In this document: positions 1-5,088 of the stretch, in pieces
Position numbering within the stretch: the first letter of the stretch is position 1
Layout of the letters: the number at the start of each line of letters is the position of its first letter
Virus record (IMG/VR): IMGVR_UViG_2681813320_000010
Location: 1 to 5,088 of that record
Strand: one strand, 5' to 3'
DNA length: 5,088 nucleotides
Origin: a virus
Lineage: Duplodnaviria; Heunggongvirae; Uroviricota; Caudoviricetes
The notes under the pieces: generated by a model
What the model was told of the DNA's origin: nothing
Seen by the model: the letters and a program-made list of their open reading frames with translations, nothing else
The model's database searches: none
Made by a program: the position numbers and the translations under genes

Positions 1-799
1 TTCCGGCATCCACATCACCAGGCCAGAGAGCGTAGGCCAGTTCGTCATCCAGTGTTTTCCATGTCTGCTTGTATTCGCGATGAATGGCAGCAATGACCAG
101 GCTGATTTTTCCTGTTGAATTTTCAGTGTGCTGTTGATTGACTCTGGCGCGGGCGAGATCAACAACAGACGTGTATTTTCCGGTTTCCTTGCGTTCACCT
201 TCGCGACGTTTTTTCCAGATGCGCATCTCTGCCTGAATTTCGGGCCATTTGGCACCAGGCTTACATTTATGCTTAACCCACCCGATGGCATGCAGCTTAA
301 GCTCCGGATACATGGCGTTAACTTCTGGCATTTTCATCAACGCTTCAACGATATGTCCGTCGAATGTTGCCATGTCTTCCTGCAACAATTCCTGTGCGCT
401 AATAACCATATCAACGGTGATGTTTTCACATGTGTCGAACTTAACCATGACAGCGTTCTGTACTTCAGGGGCCAGCTTGTCAAAAGTGACGTTCATCGGA
501 TCGGATTCAGTCTCAACCGGGACAAAGGAAGCAGACTCCTCATCCCAGCGGTTTTCCTGCATATATTCAGCATCCCAGGAATCGAGGGCAGGGCGGGGTA
601 TACCGGGTTTATCCTCGCAGACAAGAAATTTATAAGCGCAGTCCTGAGCAGCCGGATAATGTTCCAGGAATTGCCAGTGAAATTTTGCGCGGGCGCGACG
701 TTCATCACCGGCTTCAATGGCAGTGGCTACAGCGACGGCACCTTCTTCCTTTATTGCCTGTTCGTCCGGAATGGCGGCGCAAATAAAGACTTTACTCAT
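1..799 (-). CDS. Hypothetical prophage early-region protein, N-terminal 266 codons (3-prime end lies beyond the window start)
   Basis: Minus-strand frame is open from ATG at 799-797 to the window edge (manual translation, begins MSKVFICAAIPDEQAIKEEGAVAVATAIEAGDERRARAKFHWQF). Composition is acidic and protein-like. GAGGT Shine-Dalgarno lies 8 nt upstream. The track ORF 128..859 (+) is its Phe/Cys/His-rich antisense shadow. Function not recognised; position suggests a recombination or early-left module gene, which is positional inference only. Confidence 0.6.
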   Translation of the reverse strand, partial: MSKVFICAAIPDEQAIKEEGAVAVATAIEAGDERRARAKFHWQFLEHYPAAQDCAYKFLVCEDKPGIPRPALDSWDAEYMQENRWDEESASFVPVETESDPMNVTFDKLAPEVQNAVMVKFDTCENITVDMVISAQELLQEDMATFDGHIVEALMKMPEVNAMYPELKLHAIGWVKHKCKPGAKWPEIQAEMRIWKKRREGERKETGKYTSVVDLARARVNQQHTENSTGKISLVIAAIHREYKQTWKTLDDELAYALWPGDVDAG

Positions 800-891
800 T
801 TTGTTTTACCTCATTACAGATTTAAGGGTGAACAAATCCCTGCCATTGCTGGCATATAAGAATGAAACCGGATATTTATTACGGAACTGTT

Positions 892-1083
892 TTAAAGACC
901 TGCCGGGATTTCGTTATTATCCTGGTGAATAACTTTATCGACCGGGTAACAGTTACCGGGAATTTTCTGTTCTGCTGCGGCAGCCATGCATTCTTTCATT
1001 GAGTTGTACATGCCGGTGATTGCATCAAGCGACTCACCAGTATTGAGATATACAGTCAGAATGAGTATGAATAATGTGTTCAT
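892..1083 (-). CDS. Small hypothetical protein (63 aa) with hydrophobic N-terminal segment, candidate small membrane protein
   Basis: ATG at 1083-1081 preceded by GGAGAG Shine-Dalgarno (5-nt spacing); the track ORF 892..1089 starts 2 codons earlier at GTG. Product MNTLFILILTVYLNTGES... has a hydrophobic stretch at the N-terminus. Its start overlaps the stop of the upstream gene in an ATGA junction. Stop TAA at 894-892. Confidence 0.45.
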   Translation of the reverse strand: MNTLFILILTVYLNTGESLDAITGMYNSMKECMAAAAEQKIPGNCYPVDKVIHQDNNEIPAGL

Positions 1084-1268
1084 CGCCACTCTCCGAAAAT
1101 ACCGAGTTTAAGAAGGGCAATTCTGGAGAGTATGGAATTGTCATTCAGCAGGTAGGGTTCATATTTTCTCATATTGATTGCATCCTCGGTGAAATCCCTG
1201 TTACTGAGCAGAACACCAATATTAAAGCACCCGTCAGACGTATTAACGTTTGGTAGTGACGTTTCCAT
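1080..1268 (-). CDS. Small hypothetical protein (62 aa), translationally coupled to the downstream small membrane protein gene
   Basis: ATG at 1268-1266 with GAGGA Shine-Dalgarno 7 nt upstream. The longer track ORF 1080..1373 starts at GTG with no ribosome-binding site and runs through the inverted repeat, so the shorter start is preferred. Stop TGA overlaps the next ATG (ATGA). Confidence 0.4.
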   Translation of the reverse strand: METSLPNVNTSDGCFNIGVLLSNRDFTEDAINMRKYEPYLLNDNSILSRIALLKLGIFGEWR

Positions 1269-1285
1269 TATCGCGTCCTCAACAA

Positions 1286-1433
1286 TGAATTTTGTGATGC
1301 GGTGCCTGGTGCCTCCAGGTGACGTTAACCAGTTAACAATTAACGCCGGATACAGAGAATCCACCCATAACACTGTTTTTGGTTTTAACTGTTCCGCGTG
1401 CGCTCAGCCGCATTCACCACATCACAAAATTCA
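1286..1433. repeat. 19-bp imperfect inverted repeat pair bracketing a 110-bp spacer
   Basis: 1286-1304 TGAATTTTGTGATGCGGTG; 1415-1433 CACCACATCACAAAATTCA, the reverse complement with 1 mismatch (18/19). The spacer 1305-1414 holds a GGTGCCT tandem direct repeat (1301-1314), a CCTGG/CCAGG palindrome and three closely spaced TTAAC motifs (1325-1344). The left arm ends 18 nt upstream of the ATG at 1268. Confidence 0.6.
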
Positions 1434-1827
1434 CTTTAAAAAGGGCGGCAGAGCAGTCACGGAGTAAAACTGATACCGCCAAAAGTCACCAGAAAATTGA
1501 TAACAGAGGGCGTTGCAGCGGAGTTGTCACTTAAGCGTATGGTCAACCTGACAACCCGGTGTCCTCAACGGGGGAAGGAATAACCCCGCCATACTTACCG
1601 CCGCGCCATTTCGCGGAGTGCCACAACCGGAAGCGCACGGTCGAACTAAATTTAACGACACCGTACAGAGAGACCAATTTCGCCGTGCGCTTTCGCGTTA
1701 TGCCCTGACTTTTCAGGGACATATCCTTTCAGTAAACTGTCAGTGCCGGATGTTCACCCGTGTCCGGCGCACGCACTCCACCTGACCCGTGGAGAACTCC
1801 TTAATTACCAACCCTCAGGAGGGTGAA
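1434..1827. other. ORF-poor, GC-richer structured intergenic region between the plus-strand 92-aa gene and the minus-strand small-gene operon
   Basis: No ORF of 60 codons or more in any frame across about 1468-1788. By hand count about 57% GC over 1541-1700, against AT-rich flanking small genes. Hairpins: CCGCG-ccattt-CGCGG (about 1600-1616), CCCTGA-cttt-TCAGGG (1703-1718), GCCGGA-12nt-TCCGGC (about 1744-1767). GTGCGC/GCGCAC recurs four times. Weak candidate plus-strand promoter: -35 TTTTCA at 1710-1715, -10 TAAACT at 1733-1738. Confidence 0.4.
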
Positions 1828-2106
1828 ATGGATAAAAAGCAAATTGAGGCCCTGCAATCTATTATTGAAAAACAAGATGAAGCTATCAGGATTCTTTCAT
1901 ATCGCACTGATATGATACTAAATATGCTTTCTGCATTAACGGCTGCGCTTGGTGGTACAAAAACAAACGTATACCGCGAAGTTGTTATTCAACAGATAGA
2001 TAAATTTGAAAAAACCATACCAGGTATTAATGCTCATCTTGCAGAACAAGAGAAAGACCATGCTCTTATGGCAATTTCTTCAGTAGCTCTCCCGAAAGTT
2101 GAGTAG
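1828..2106 (+). CDS. Hypothetical 92-aa coiled-coil-like protein, transcribed opposite to the surrounding early-left genes
   Basis: ATG at 1828 preceded by strong AGGAGGG Shine-Dalgarno (1817-1823); the track ORF begins upstream at GTG 1789 with no ribosome-binding site. Product MDKKQIEALQSIIEKQDEAIRILSYRTDMILNMLSALTAALGG... is balanced and heptad-like. Stop TAG at 2104-2106. The 3-prime 41 nt overlap the convergent 133-aa gene. Confidence 0.5.
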   Translation: MDKKQIEALQSIIEKQDEAIRILSYRTDMILNMLSALTAALGGTKTNVYREVVIQQIDKFEKTIPGINAHLAEQEKDHALMAISSVALPKVE

Positions 2107-2467
2107 TTTTAATTGTTGTTTTGAAATAATCACTGCTTTCACATTTGAGTGATTTCATGGCAATCCAAATGCGGGCCTCTGTGCCTGCATTTGGTTCCAG
2201 TTGCTGTAGACGTTTTGCGTCTTCCAAAAGTAAGGCGATAATGTGTTTCAGCTTCTCATCATTTGCTTGATTCTTGTTTTCAGGCGAATTCTGTCCGCCG
2301 AATAGGCGCTTCTCTTCATACAGACCTATAAAGGCACGACGCACGTTACCGGATATAGTATCGATGGTTTCCTTTTCTACAGTACTCAGGTCAAGAGTCG
2401 CCAGTTGAGAGCGAACCACATTCGCTGCCATTTCCTGGAATGGCATTGGTAAATCTTTAAATTCCAT
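2066..2467 (-). CDS. Hypothetical early-left protein (133 aa)
   Basis: ATG at 2467-2465 with GAGG Shine-Dalgarno 6 nt upstream, 22 nt after the stop of the upstream 72-aa gene (operon-like). Protein-like composition (MEFKDLPMPFQEMAANVVRSQLATLDLSTVEKETIDTISG...). No family recognised. The last 13 codons overlap the plus-strand gene, so the true 3-prime end is uncertain. Confidence 0.5.
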   Translation of the reverse strand: MEFKDLPMPFQEMAANVVRSQLATLDLSTVEKETIDTISGNVRRAFIGLYEEKRLFGGQNSPENKNQANDEKLKHIIALLLEDAKRLQQLEPNAGTEARIWIAMKSLKCESSDYFKTTIKTTQLSGELLKKLP

Positions 2468-2489
2468 TATTAGCCTCGTTGGTTAGCTA

Positions 2490-2708
2490 TTAACGTGGGT
2501 ATGTAACCATTCTGGCAATGCTTAATGCCGCTGCTTTTTCCAGCCTGGTGATATCCTGCTCCAGAGCGGACAGATTTTCAGCCTGCTTAGTCCTGGCTTC
2601 ATTGGCCCATTTCAGATCCTGCGCTGCATTAATTTTCTGGCGCATCCACTCATAAAGTTCATCATCGGTATAGTCTGGCGCGATGATGACGGGTTCTCGT
2701 TTCTGCAT
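2490..2708 (-). CDS. Hypothetical small early-left protein (72 aa), predicted helical/coiled-coil
   Basis: ATG at 2708-2706 with GAGGAA Shine-Dalgarno 6 nt upstream; stop TAA at 2492-2490. Product MQKREPVIIAPDYTDDELYEWMRQKINAAQDLKWANEARTKQAENLSALEQDITRLEKAAALSIARMVTYPR is charged and helix-prone. No family recognised. Confidence 0.5.
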   Translation of the reverse strand: MQKREPVIIAPDYTDDELYEWMRQKINAAQDLKWANEARTKQAENLSALEQDITRLEKAAALSIARMVTYPR

Positions 2709-2737
2709 ACTGATTCCTCGCGGTGCTGTTTCGCTTA

Positions 2738-2866
2738 TCAGCCGTTAGATTTTGCCGAACTGGAAAGCGCCTGTTTAAATTCGTTGAAGCTGAGAGCTTC
2801 TTCGCCTTCGGCAAGACCTTCGAAGTATTCTTCGTAAGCCTTTTCCATGATTGTGTCGAAATCCAT
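2738..2866 (-). CDS. Small acidic hypothetical protein (42 aa), absent from the ORF track because it is short
   Basis: Manual translation from ATG 2866-2864 to TGA 2740-2738: MDFDTIMEKAYEEYFEGLAEGEEALSFNEFKQALSSSAKSNG. AGGTGA Shine-Dalgarno-like sequence upstream; ATG lies 1 nt after the stop of the upstream 51-aa ORF. The overlapping track ORFs 2662..2871 (-) and 2723..2920 (+) have basic or antisense-like low-complexity products and are considered shadows. Resembles the small Rac-prophage ydaF/ydaG-type genes by size and position, from memory only. Confidence 0.4.
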   Translation of the reverse strand: MDFDTIMEKAYEEYFEGLAEGEEALSFNEFKQALSSSAKSNG

Positions 2867-2867
2867 A

Positions 2868-3023
2868 TCACTCACCTGAGTTTCTTTCCAGCCAGCGACG
2901 GGCACCATTTTCGGTTTTAAACGTTTTGCTTTTGGTATACGTCATCGCGGTGAACGTACCGTCCTGGTTGGGGAACACGCCACATACCAGAGATTCGCTG
3001 TTGCCAAGATCGATAGTATCCAT
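2868..3023 (-). CDS. Small hypothetical protein (51 aa); first gene after the candidate OL/pL region (alternative upstream start at 3104 would give 78 aa)
   Basis: ATG at 3023-3021 with GAGGT Shine-Dalgarno 4 nt upstream: MDTIDLGNSESLVCGVFPNQDGTFTAMTYTKSKTFKTENGARRWLERNSGE; stop TGA 2870-2868. The track ORF extends to ATG 3104 with an N-rich hydrophobic extension of doubtful coding character. Start choice is unresolved. Confidence 0.45.
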   Translation of the reverse strand: MDTIDLGNSESLVCGVFPNQDGTFTAMTYTKSKTFKTENGARRWLERNSGE

Positions 3024-3199
3024 GCTGACCTCATTTCCCCTTAACGCCGGGGTAGCGGAACAAAAACCTGCTGCATAGTTATTAAAGTTGAACCCTGCCG
3101 TCATGTTCTTACGCCTCGGGCTGGCTACTTAACCCCTGACCACTGCCGGGTAACTCGAAGTATTGCCTGGCGTTCTGTGGGGCGGGGTGGGTTGATGAA

Positions 3200-3250
3200 T
3201 GAACAATACCACTACTATTTAATTATGTAAATAGCAGTGCTATTATCGTG
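3200..3250 (-). promoter_or_regulatory. Candidate OL/pL-like operator-promoter region for the early-left operon
   Basis: Overlapping palindromes: CTATTTA-ATTATG-TAAATAG (3215-3234) and AAATAG-CAGTG-CTATTA (3229-3245), plus a degenerate copy CAATAC-CACTA-CTATTT (3204-3220); same half-site family as the OR region. Candidate minus-strand promoter: -35 TTTACA (3229-3224), 17-nt spacer, -10 TATTGT (3206-3201). Lies between the terminator of the repressor operon and the first early-left gene. Confidence 0.4.
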
Positions 3251-3252
3251 GC

Positions 3253-3278
3253 AAGAAAAAAACCACCCGAAGGTGGTT
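3253..3278 (-). terminator. Rho-independent terminator of the repressor-antitoxin-toxin operon
   Basis: On the minus strand: 7-bp stem AACCACC/GGTGGTT with a UUCG tetraloop (plus 3261-3278), followed by a U-run (plus 3256-3260 AAAAA; transcript GGUGGUUUUUUUCUU). Begins 15 nt downstream of the toxin stop codon (3295-3293). Confidence 0.7.
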
Positions 3279-3292
3279 GTTGACAGGAAGGA

Positions 3293-3583
3293 TTAACAGG
3301 TTTTGTTTGGATACTGTCTTCGTGAGTGAACTACATTTACGATCTCGATGTTAGATGCTGTTACTCGGTAAAGTATTATGTAGTTAGGATGAGTCACTAT
3401 CTCACGAAGACTTGGAACTCTTTCGCTCGGTGGGTACAGATAAGGGTGTTCAGTAAGTGACAAAACTGATGTTTCAATGCGTATTTTTAGTCTACGTGCA
3501 GCGGGAGGGTTTTCCTTAGCAATATAGGCTACGATCTGACGTAAATCATCACGTGCAGAAGGTAGCCATAAAATGGGCAGCAT
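3293..3583 (-). CDS. parE: Type II toxin, ParE/RelE superfamily (ParE-like), 96 aa
   Basis: Product MLPILWLPSARDDLRQIVAYIAKENPPAARRLKIRIETSVLSLTEHPYLYPPSERVPSLREIVTHPNYIILYRVTASNIEIVNVVHSRRQYP shows the ParE pattern: W-x-x-x-A-x-x-DL-x-x-I-x-x-YIA, an R-x-L/I-E region, R-E/L-V/I then YRV then I-x-I-x-x-V-x-H, and a terminal RQ-x-P. ATG overlaps the upstream antitoxin stop by 1 nt (TAATG). Family assignment is from memory of ParE sequences; parE is a family-level symbol only. Confidence 0.8.
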   Translation of the reverse strand: MLPILWLPSARDDLRQIVAYIAKENPPAARRLKIRIETSVLSLTEHPYLYPPSERVPSLREIVTHPNYIILYRVTASNIEIVNVVHSRRQYPNKTC

Positions 3584-3774
3584 TACTCACTCCTGTTCGT
3601 TGCAGCTAATTGAGCAATAAGGTTTTCCATTTCAGCCATTACTTCGTCATGTGGAATTGCAGGACGGGGATCTGAGAGGCTTGCTGCCACTTTGGTTCGC
3701 AACCATTCGTTATAGCTGTTTTCTTGTTCGACTGTTTCAAATTCAGAAATTATCGGGGAAAGGGCTGTACTCAT
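3583..3774 (-). CDS. paaA: Small antitoxin (63 aa) paired with the ParE-like toxin; resembles PaaA-type antitoxins of three-component ParE systems
   Basis: ATG at 3774-3772 with GGAGG Shine-Dalgarno 7 nt upstream, 17 nt after the repressor stop; stop overlaps the toxin start. Product MSTALSPIISEFETVEQENSYNEWLRTKVAASLSDPRPAIPHDEVMAEMENLIAQLAATNRSE is small, acidic and likely disordered, typical of type II antitoxins. The PaaA-like call rests on gene order and recollection, not a search; paaA is a family-level symbol only. Confidence 0.7.
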   Translation of the reverse strand: MSTALSPIISEFETVEQENSYNEWLRTKVAASLSDPRPAIPHDEVMAEMENLIAQLAATNRSE

Positions 3775-3791
3775 GTTTTTACCTCCTCAGA

Positions 3792-4292
3792 TTAGGCGCG
3801 ACGACCCTTTTGCGCAGCTAGCCATCGCGCAACGATTTCTTCAATTGATTCTTTTTTCTCCTTCATTTCCTTAAGCATTTTCTCTTTATCTTCTTTGGGG
3901 AAAGCCCTGAACGTCTGGAGCAAATCCCGCTCCATGGGGTCTATATTAAACGGAAGTTCGTTTTCCGATTGTTCCATATCTGCAGATATAGTGACAACAT
4001 TGTCCTCCCCAGATTCTTGGGGATACATCCTTACAATTTGTAACAACTCGGCCATATCTGGTCTGATTGACTCGGGAGGAACTTGCAGCAACCCTGCGAA
4101 CTTGATAACAGCCTCAAGATTTAAAGGTGTCTGACCATTTAGATAATGGCTTACAGCTCCCTGTGTCGAAAATCCCAGAATTTCTGCCGCACGCTCTTGG
4201 GTTAACCCTAGTTGATTTTTTTTCGCCGTCCAGATTTCTTTCAGTCTCTGGGCGGCTTGCAGGTCGATCTCTGACAGGGATTTTCTTTTCAT
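3792..4292 (-). CDS. paaR: HTH (XRE/Cro-CI family) transcriptional repressor, 166 aa; CI analogue and first gene of the repressor-antitoxin-toxin operon
   Basis: N-terminal helix-turn-helix signature LTQERAAEILGFSTQGAVSHYLNGQTP. C-terminal region is Lys/Glu-rich with no recognisable LexA/S24-type autocleavage motif. Divergent from the Cro-like gene across an operator-rich 107-bp region. AAGG ribosome-binding site almost abuts the ATG, so the leader is poor. paaR is assigned by operon architecture, moderately confident. Confidence 0.8.
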   Translation of the reverse strand: MKRKSLSEIDLQAAQRLKEIWTAKKNQLGLTQERAAEILGFSTQGAVSHYLNGQTPLNLEAVIKFAGLLQVPPESIRPDMAELLQIVRMYPQESGEDNVVTISADMEQSENELPFNIDPMERDLLQTFRAFPKEDKEKMLKEMKEKKESIEEIVARWLAAQKGRRA

Positions 4293-4399
4293 ACCTTCAA
4301 TTCTAATAAGATTATTAATCTCTTTGAAATAGTGATGCTATTTACTTTTAAAAATAACAATGCTATTAATGATCGTGATGACATCACATGAGGTGAACA
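4293..4399. promoter_or_regulatory. Candidate OR-like divergent operator-promoter region between repressor and Cro-like gene
   Basis: Two 17-bp palindromic sites spaced 25 bp centre to centre: AAATAG-TGATG-CTATTT (4327-4343) and AAATAA-CAATG-CTATTA (4352-4368). A separate perfect palindrome GTGATG-a-CATCAC (4375-4387) sits just before the GAGGTG Shine-Dalgarno of the Cro-like gene. Candidate rightward promoter: -35 TTTACT (4341-4346), -10 TATTAA (4364-4369), overlapping the operators. Confidence 0.55.
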
Positions 4400-4675
4400 A
4401 TGAATCTTGGAGAATATTTGCATCATTCCGGTATAACTCAGAAGCATTTTGCTGAAATTGTTGGGGTAACCCAAGGGATGGTAAGCCATGTCATTACCGG
4501 ACGGGCGAAACTTACGGGGAAAAAAATTTTACGCTGGTGCGAAGCAACAGGCTGGATAGTAACTCCGCACGAGATTGATGGCAGTACTTATCCCAACCCA
4601 ACCGACGGCTTACCTGTCGAGTATCAGGCTAACACACAACCAGAGGCGGGGGTGATTCATGAAAATCAAGCATGA
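4400..4675 (+). CDS. ydaS: Cro-like HTH DNA-binding protein, YdaS-type (91 aa)
   Basis: ATG at 4400 with GAGGTG Shine-Dalgarno 4 nt upstream. HTH signature ITQKHFAEIVGVTQGMVSHVITG. Divergent from the repressor and followed by an overlapping YdaT-like gene, the arrangement of the Rac-type ydaS-ydaT pair. Assignment from motif and synteny. Confidence 0.75.
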   Translation: MNLGEYLHHSGITQKHFAEIVGVTQGMVSHVITGRAKLTGKKILRWCEATGWIVTPHEIDGSTYPNPTDGLPVEYQANTQPEAGVIHENQA

Positions 4676-5084
4676 ACACATCCGCATGGCAATGAATGCC
4701 TGGGCGCATCCGGACGGCGAAAAAGTACCGGCTGCGAAAATTACCAAAGCGTATTTCGAGCTGGGAATGACGTTCCCGGAACTGTATGACGACAGCCATC
4801 CGGAAGCCCTGGCCCGTAATACCCAGAAAATTTTCCGTTGGCTGGATAAAGACACCCCTGATGCTGTTGAAAAAATGCAGGCTCTGTTACCGGCGATCGA
4901 AAAGGCGATGCCGCCTTTGCTGGTGGCCCGTATGCGCAGCCACAGTTCTGAATATTACCGTGAGATCGTCGAACGGAGGGATCGGCTGGTGAAGGATGTC
5001 GATGATTTTGTTGCGTCAGCGGTTGTTTTGTATGACCAGATGAATCGCGGCGGCCCGGCAGGGAATGCTGTGGTGATGCACTAA
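4659..5084 (+). CDS. ydaT: YdaT-like protein (141 aa), CII analogue of Rac-type immunity regions
   Basis: Begins MKIKHEHI, which I recall as the N-terminus of Rac-prophage YdaT. Overlaps the 3-prime end of the Cro-like gene by 17 nt in another frame. G-rich ribosome-binding site (GGGGGTG) upstream. Stop TAA 5082-5084. Assignment from recollection and synteny. Confidence 0.75.
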   Translation: MKIKHEHIRMAMNAWAHPDGEKVPAAKITKAYFELGMTFPELYDDSHPEALARNTQKIFRWLDKDTPDAVEKMQALLPAIEKAMPPLLVARMRSHSSEYYREIVERRDRLVKDVDDFVASAVVLYDQMNRGGPAGNAVVMH

Positions 5085-5088
5085 AAGC

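Follow-up and report, generated by a model that had tools for sequence, protein, structure and literature searches.

The paaR-paaA-parE class of three-component toxin-antitoxin (TA) modules was defined in Escherichia coli O157:H7 by Hallez 2010 (cited via PMC8630535 and PMC4803016), and modules of this class lie in the immunity regions of the O157:H7 prophages CP-933M and CP-933P (PMC8630535; PMC9986795). In this arrangement PaaR2 replaces CI, and paaA2-parE2 replace rexA and rexB (PMC9986795). For paaR2-paaA2-parE2, PMC8630535 establishes by experiment the operon, repression by PaaR2 as a CI analogue, operators at PRM/PR and PL, bistability, the roles of YdaS as a Cro analogue and of YdaT as a CII analogue activating PRE, and post-segregational killing that depends on ClpAP/ClpXP. 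Within the class, paaR2-paaA2-parE2 is the only module for which co-transcription, auto-repression and such killing are shown. PaaA1 and PaaA2 do not cross-neutralise the toxin of the other pair (PMC4803016). Here we describe a 5,088-nt stretch of viral DNA (positions 1 to 5,088 of IMG/VR record IMGVR_UViG_2681813320_000010; hereafter the window). It covers the immunity region of an E. coli prophage of the lambdoid, Qin/CP-933M-like kind and represents a third immunity type of this published paaR-paaA-parE architecture. What is new in it is a repressor that joins a lambda-CI-like DNA-binding domain to a PaaR tail, together with its own candidate operators and a PaaA/ParE allele closest to pair 1, which amounts to the usual lambdoid mosaicism in a system already described. 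We consider it very probable that a non-cleavable PaaR-type repressor shares a single prophage immunity transcript with PaaA and ParE here, the pair most likely acting as an addiction module. A sequence-only reading of the window had pointed to such an operon; its observation is confirmed by our analysis, and the evidence supports its interpretation as correct and already published.

Anatomy of the operon and identity of its products

The three genes lie on the minus strand and encode, in order, a helix-turn-helix (HTH) repressor of the PaaR type that is the analogue of CI (4292..3792, a 166-aa open reading frame [ORF]), an acidic PaaA-type antitoxin without a DNA-binding domain (3774..3583, 63 aa) and a basic ParE-family toxin (3583..3293, 96 aa). 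The sequence-only reading had placed a small acidic antitoxin within 17 nt of a CI-like HTH repressor, and the spacer is exactly 17 nt (3791..3775), with a Shine-Dalgarno sequence for paaA, GAGGAGG, seen directly within it (3788..3782, minus strand). The overlap of antitoxin stop and toxin start that had been described is also present: the paaA stop TAA (3585..3583) and the parE ATG (3583..3581) have one base in common, giving TAATG at 3585..3581, and AGGAG (3594..3590) precedes the parE start. A pattern scan places the intrinsic terminator of the three-gene operon at 3278..3254 on the minus strand (AACCACC-TTCG-GGTGGTT followed by T7), with a 7-bp stem, a UUCG loop, a U7 run and a hairpin energy of -10.4 kcal/mol. 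Another, weak terminator-like match with a 5-bp stem falls inside the repressor gene (3967..3951); three such matches were found against 1.6 expected, so that the intragenic one is within chance, and the pattern-perfect one is single and follows parE. The HTH regulator gene directly precedes paaA-parE, shares their strand and is not separated from them by a terminator, and the spacing, the ribosome sites and the single terminator together suggest that repressor, paaA and parE are carried on one mRNA.

The profile and BLASTP searches that had been proposed for these proteins returned the anticipated matches to a ParE toxin and a PaaA-type antitoxin. The antitoxin (pI 4.41, with 11 acidic against 4 basic residues) has Pfam PF21217, PaaA2, as its sole Pfam match (1e-21, 77.1 bits against a cut-off of 27), reaches 92.8 bits with the NCBIfam "RelB family antitoxin" model (cut-off 50) and aligns with crystallised PaaA2 in the PDB (3zbe; E = 2e-22, 70% identity over 54 aa); like PaaA, it is short, lacks a DNA-binding domain and is encoded directly upstream of parE. 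The toxin (pI 9.72) matches Pfam ParE_toxin (6.6e-18, 65.5 bits, cut-off 23) and crystallised ParE2 (5cw7_B; E = 5e-36, 65% identity). All four of its PDB matches were deposited as ParE or plasmid-stabilisation proteins, with ParE2 the best of them, and the NCBIfam RelE_StbE model scores 27.6, just under its cut-off of 27.9; by sequence the protein belongs to the ParE branch rather than to RelE. The protein matches are far beyond chance, and they exceed the curated family cut-offs two- to threefold.

For comparison we used the EDL933 locus, which is taken to be the CP-933M copy (paaR1-paaA1-parE1) since the start of its repressor differs from the MQKKE of PaaR2. It has the gene order exonuclease, DUF1482, dicB, ydfB, ydfA, parE, paaA, HTH repressor and divergent ydaS-ydaT in common with the window, and its pair is the closest to that of the window (84% identity for PaaA and 88% for ParE). 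This gene order, together with the PaaA2 matches in Pfam and the PDB and the ParE2 matches in the PDB, bears out the likeness to the O157:H7 modules that the sequence-only reading had proposed. Relative to the EDL933 homologues, parE has a ratio of nonsynonymous to synonymous differences (pN/pS) of about 0.12, from a pN of 0.095 and a pS of 0.79 at which synonymous sites are saturated, and paaA one of about 0.16; the dN/dS values are 0.11 (paaA) and 0.14 (ydaT). The genes are under purifying selection and are therefore maintained by selection.

A composite repressor and its candidate operators

In the repressor, a lambda-CI-like HTH domain (aa 1-90) is joined through an acidic linker (aa 91-121) to a conserved C-terminal tail of the PaaR/DicA type (aa 122-166), and HTH_3 is the only Pfam domain detected in the protein (9.9e-10). 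Residues 2-90 align with the N-terminal domain of lambda CI, basic arm included (E = 1.5e-9, 38% identity over 89 positions), and the corresponding domain of Stx2-phage CI shows 52% identity. Pfam yielded no match to Peptidase_S24, and alignments to full-length CI end at about residue 115. It is the last 45-55 residues that match the C-termini of the O157 PaaR proteins: identity of the C-terminus is 47% over 87 aa with EDL933 PaaR and 55% over 44 aa with the PaaR2 that phage Evi encodes, and the PaaR segment LLQxFxAFPxED...ARWxAAQKxRRA is present. Resemblance of the tail to the DicA C-terminus is weaker (27% identity; NCBIfam DicA model positions 75-130, E = 1.5e-7). Because the S24 domain is absent and the tail is PaaR/DicA-like, we regard the protein as a CI analogue with a CI-like DNA-binding domain and not as a member of the CI family, and RecA-mediated induction is not expected of a repressor without the S24 autocleavage domain. 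A PDB sequence search with EDL933 PaaR returned generic 434/HipB HTH domains only, so that the PaaR tail has no sequence-detectable solved relative. BLASTP gave no alignment of the N-terminal domain to either PaaR1 or PaaR2; since those two also differ from each other in this domain, it is not really family-defining for paaR modules. PaaR2 itself has no sequence similarity to CI, according to its authors (PMC8630535).

The operon is flanked by four copies of a 15-bp palindrome, AATAG-N5-CTATT (unstranded), which occur only as two pairs with 25-bp spacing and overlap promoter-like hexamers. The OR pair, AATAGTGATGCTATT (4328-4342) and AATAACAATGCTATT (4353-4367), lies in the repressor/ydaS intergenic region, and the OL pair, AATACCACTACTATT (3205-3219) and AATAGCAGTGCTATT (3230-3244), just past the terminator. 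At one mismatch or fewer, four copies are found against 0.14 expected and none of 200 shuffles reaches four; the significance holds at this threshold only, the search at two mismatches or fewer giving four against 2.6 expected, which is no better than chance. The OL pair is overlapped by a PL-like promoter found by scan (3231..3203, minus strand, TTTACA-17-TATTGT) that is predicted to drive ydfA-ydfB-ydfC-dicF-dicB, and the OR pair by a putative PR with TTTACT at 4341-4346 and TATTAA at 4364-4369 (plus strand, spacing 17). A pattern scan also finds a PRM-like promoter (4328..4300, minus strand, TTCAAA-17-TAGAAT) whose -35 hexamer abuts the operator at 4328-4342 and whose -10 hexamer ends 7 nt before the repressor ATG (4292), leaving no usable ribosome site; on these grounds we predict a repressor mRNA with little or no leader, in line with the leaderless mRNAs shown for paaR2 of CP-933P and for cI (PMC8630535).

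In the EDL933 locus a different repeat, ACAATAAAAAACTGT, takes the same aligned positions at OL and OR, and there too the copies are spaced by 25 bp; they (3864-3913 and 4879-4944 of that locus, L002) are probably the operators of the local repressor. In the published work found, operators are described for CP-933P only. As EDL933, with an unrelated repressor N-terminus, carries a different repeat at the same positions, the operators co-vary with the DNA-binding domain. Two alleles diverged by 8-20% (L064 and L063) keep the AATAG/CTATT half-sites and change the 5-bp spacers. In the first of these (L064, from E. coli STEC299; 745-874 and 1863-1983), which is 92% identical and has a repressor 88% identical to that of the window, CTATT has become TTATT in three of the four operators, a shared half-site change that could be coordinated operator/repressor drift or simple tolerance. 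Taken together, spacing, position and co-variation support the palindromes as candidate operators of the repressor and/or its Cro analogue, and since they sit at both PL and PR and co-vary, they argue that the HTH protein controls these two promoters and not the TA genes alone. PaaR-type repressors are modular, combining one conserved C-terminal tail with at least three unrelated DNA-binding domains and with OL/OR operators matching each.

Immunity cassette, prophage context and distribution

A sliding identity profile combined with BLAST segments against the EDL933 locus delimits a divergent immunity cassette at 3190..4655 (unstranded, boundaries approximate), which comprises OL, the terminator, parE, paaA, paaR, OR and the 5' part of ydaS. 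Identity is 92-100% in the left flank up to about 3160, falls to about 50% across OL and the terminator (~3220-3340), stands at 65-87% over parE, paaA and the repressor tail (3340-3920) and is as low as 25-48%, that is, unrelated, over the repressor N-terminal domain, OR and the 5' part of ydaS (3940-4540); in the right flank it is 98-100% at first, from about 4660, and declines to about 75% by 5080. The EDL933 terminator is in the same place and keeps the structure with a different sequence. This profile shows that the TA pair lies inside the divergent immunity cassette and has diverged along with it, which is the pattern expected if the pair stabilises the cassette.

The EDL933 repressor is 434/DicA-like and 133 aa long, whereas that of the window is lambda-CI-like and 166 aa, and the EDL933 operators, ACAATAAAAAACTGT, likewise differ from AATAG-N5-CTATT. 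The paaR2-paaA2-parE2 locus of CP-933P/Sp12 has a three-gene operon in the immunity region, divergent ydaS-ydaT genes and a YdaT operator at the ydaS/ydaT junction, as does the window, but differs in the repressor N-terminal domain, the operators and the OL block; the window proteins are 70% (PaaA), 65% (ParE) and, over 44 aa of the PaaR tail, 55% identical to their counterparts. Escherichia phage Evi (LR597642.1; 1916-2779 of locus L004) has an immunity region that encodes PaaR2 (MQKKE...) together with PaaA2 and ParE2, both of these essentially identical to the crystallised proteins, with the parE2 ORF unannotated in the record. Placement of the module in the cI-rexAB slot, another proposal of the sequence-only reading, is stated outright in PMC9986795 and agrees with the OL/PL-type operators directly past the terminator and the OR-type operators upstream of the repressor. 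As in lambda cI-rexA-rexB, the repressor comes first on a PRM-type, probably leaderless transcript with two cargo genes and a terminator right before OL/PL, divergent analogues of cro and cII accompany it, and its N-terminal domain and the one in lambda CI are homologues (38% identity). In contrast to lambda, the window repressor has no S24 autocleavage domain, the cargo is a ParE TA pair unrelated to RexAB, and there are two clear operators per side with 1.1 kb between OL and OR rather than three per side with 2.4 kb. The rexAB likeness is positional only, Pfam, NCBIfam and PADLOC searches for RexA/RexB homology having given PaaA/ParE assignments alone. The dicA/dicC region of K-12 Qin has the same left arm (ydfA-ydfB-ydfC-dicF-dicB-DUF1482-exonuclease, 90-96% nucleotide identity) and the same repressor position, but no TA pair between dicA and ydfA, and its repressor, operators and Cro analogue are different.

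The full gene order in the window is exonuclease, DUF1482, dicB, DicF RNA, a 133-aa ORF, ydfC, ydfB, ydfA, parE, paaA, repressor, divergent ydaS-like gene and ydaT. The operon is thus placed within a lambdoid immunity region, where ydaS-ydaT diverge from it and a PL-type promoter follows it. Divergent from the repressor, a YdaS-like Cro analogue is encoded at 4400..4675 (plus strand, 91-aa HTH protein, Pfam HTH_3 9.4e-6); it is 42% identical to EDL933 YdaS, with the C-terminal half conserved and the DNA-binding half different. The following gene (4659..5084, plus strand) encodes the CII analogue YdaT (Pfam YdaT_toxin, 2.8e-10), 87% identical to EDL933 YdaT. A putative OM-type YdaT operator, GTGATTCATGAAAATCAA, at the ydaS stop/ydaT start (4652..4669, unstranded) has one mismatch to the site TTGATT-N6-AATCAA defined in PMC9986795 and marks the predicted PRE region; at the position that aligns with it, the EDL933 locus and phage Evi both have perfect sites. 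On the left arm, the DicF small RNA gene (1443-1494, minus strand; Rfam RF00039, full length, 75.8 bits against a gathering threshold of 48) lies between the 133-aa ORF and the dicB homologue (1080-1268, minus strand), as in K-12 Qin. A plus-strand ORF at 1828-2106 (~92-105 aa) lies inside the otherwise leftward PL operon and converges on the 133-aa minus-strand ORF (2066-2467) with an overlap of 41 nt; neither has a Pfam or NCBIfam match, and both are hypothetical proteins in RefSeq. The closest full-length match to the window, at 99%, is a prophage adjoining ompW in E. coli fS10a, where about 860 bp of extra sequence with a Rha-family regulator gene stand beside dicB (16279-17247 of locus L001) and a partial dicB duplicate remains.

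Of 5,426 complete E. coli genomes, 72 (~1.3%) contain the immunity-specific block (3923-4584), including O104:H4 and several Shiga toxin-producing E. coli (STEC) strains, and 70 of the 5,426 carry at least 80% of 3240-4400. Over this last stretch, E. coli FDAARGOS_401 matches the window at 100% identity. Two inspected divergent alleles hold the full three-gene operon, one of them not shown to fall outside those 70. Some homologue of the TA pair is found in 583 of the same genomes. Among 50,697 phage records the full-length repressor is absent and ParE homologues occur in only two. Outside the enterobacteria, PaaA-ParE is widespread as a module of two genes, occurring in Bartonella, acetic acid bacteria, Pseudomonas, sphingomonads and other alpha-, beta- and gammaproteobacteria. 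In 57 such loci from species-representative genomes, phmmer found no PaaR-like ORF, with the ORFs just upstream not inspected individually, in keeping with a published proposal that a phage immunity region acquired the pair by insertion. About 15 loci (L045-L059) have a PaaA-motif ORF of ~150 aa with unrefined starts, which could mean an antitoxin with an extra N-terminal domain.

Role of the toxin-antitoxin pair

We hypothesize that the repressor is transcribed from the PRM-like, probably leaderless promoter on an mRNA that PaaA and ParE share and that would stop just before OL/PL, and that it may bind the AATAG-N5-CTATT pairs at OR and OL. Bound repressor would shut off both the divergent ydaS-ydaT operon and the leftward ydfABC-dicF-dicB operon. 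PaaA, a short acidic peptide, would neutralise ParE by direct binding, and because it cannot itself regulate transcription, the TA pair should depend on the prophage switch for its expression. Judging from the homologous O157:H7 systems that have been tested, the TA genes most likely form an addiction module: upon loss or replacement of the cassette, ClpXP/ClpAP would degrade PaaA and free the stable ParE, and the freed toxin would penalise deletion of the region or heteroimmune recombination replacing it. ParE2 induces SOS and co-localises with the nucleoid (PMC8630535).

Several observations weigh against this reading. The repressor DNA-binding domain is unrelated in sequence to those of PaaR1 and PaaR2, so that low-dose activation, octamerisation and looping may not transfer to it. 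Only two clear operators are found per side, and over PRM a third OR operator could not be established, the site there (4305-4319) being weak and matching 7 of 10 half-site bases; the PR hexamers TTTACT/TATTAA failed the consensus scan and were placed by symmetry with PL. The energy of the terminator hairpin has a z-score of only -1.3 in its 56-nt context, which is unexceptional, so that of the "strong" intrinsic terminator claimed by the sequence-only reading the textbook pattern stands and the adjective rests on that canonical pattern, not on energy. The role of the O157 homologue is itself unsettled: PMC8630535 reports no ParE2 activity in either switch state and does not identify the molecular target. 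The suggestion that the arrangement couples lysogeny control to toxin dosage was likewise overstated, as both states of the paaR2-paaA2-parE2 switch transcribe the pair and neither activates ParE2 (PMC8630535).

The pair could instead be superinfection-exclusion or abortive-infection cargo, a functional analogue of rexAB in which an incoming phage upsets the PaaA:ParE balance and kills or arrests the lysogen. Its rexAB position on the repressor transcript, with expression in the lysogenic state, speaks for such a role, and prophage-borne TA systems acting in defence are an established theme. We nevertheless consider it unlikely, as none of the three operon proteins matches a PADLOC defence model, and the homologue experiments showed addiction, with no phage-exclusion test reported in the sections of PMC8630535 consulted. 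Far less probable is that the HTH protein is a dedicated regulator of the TA genes only, a "split antitoxin", and not the prophage immunity repressor. Some three-component TA systems, omega-epsilon-zeta and pasABC among them, do have a regulator of their own (PMC4803016), and the lack of a DNA-binding domain in PaaA would suit one. This view is disfavoured by the presence of the same palindromes at the PL-like promoter of ydfABC-dicF-dicB, 1.1 kb away, and over the divergent ydaS promoter, by a repressor gene exactly at the dicA/cI position, and by the 57 non-enterobacterial pairs in which phmmer detected no PaaR-like gene (upstream ORFs not inspected individually), from which we conclude that the regulator is a phage component and no part of the TA pair. 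Finally, that the operon is an inert remnant of a decaying cryptic prophage is highly improbable: its best-studied relatives do sit in cryptic prophages, and the phage records lack the full-length repressor and show ParE homologues in only two cases, but the three ORFs are intact with good ribosome sites, purifying selection is strong, the organisation is kept across alleles 8-20% diverged, and the homologue is expressed and addictive (PMC8630535 and PMC4803016).

With an addiction module on the immunity transcript as the preferred reading, one may tentatively go further and propose, as a possibility we would not favour at present, that each lambdoid immunity type of this lineage carries a private, non-cross-neutralising PaaA-ParE allele in the cassette between OL and the repressor, where it polices the cassette. 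It takes further a hypothesis that was put forward earlier by Jurenas et al. If it were true, recombinants swapping or deleting the immunity cassette would lose the cognate antitoxin and die, and the present locus would be a third specificity pair, with a repressor assembled from a lambda-CI-type DNA-binding domain and the PaaR oligomerisation tail. The RefSeq labels of the three genes are generic ("helix-turn-helix domain-containing protein," "RelB family antitoxin," and "RelE/ParE family toxin"); a more exact naming is now possible, as a paaR-paaA-parE module whose candidate operators are defined, a result of little importance beyond correct annotation. For the family as a whole, the modularity of the repressors provides a natural set of orthogonal switches.

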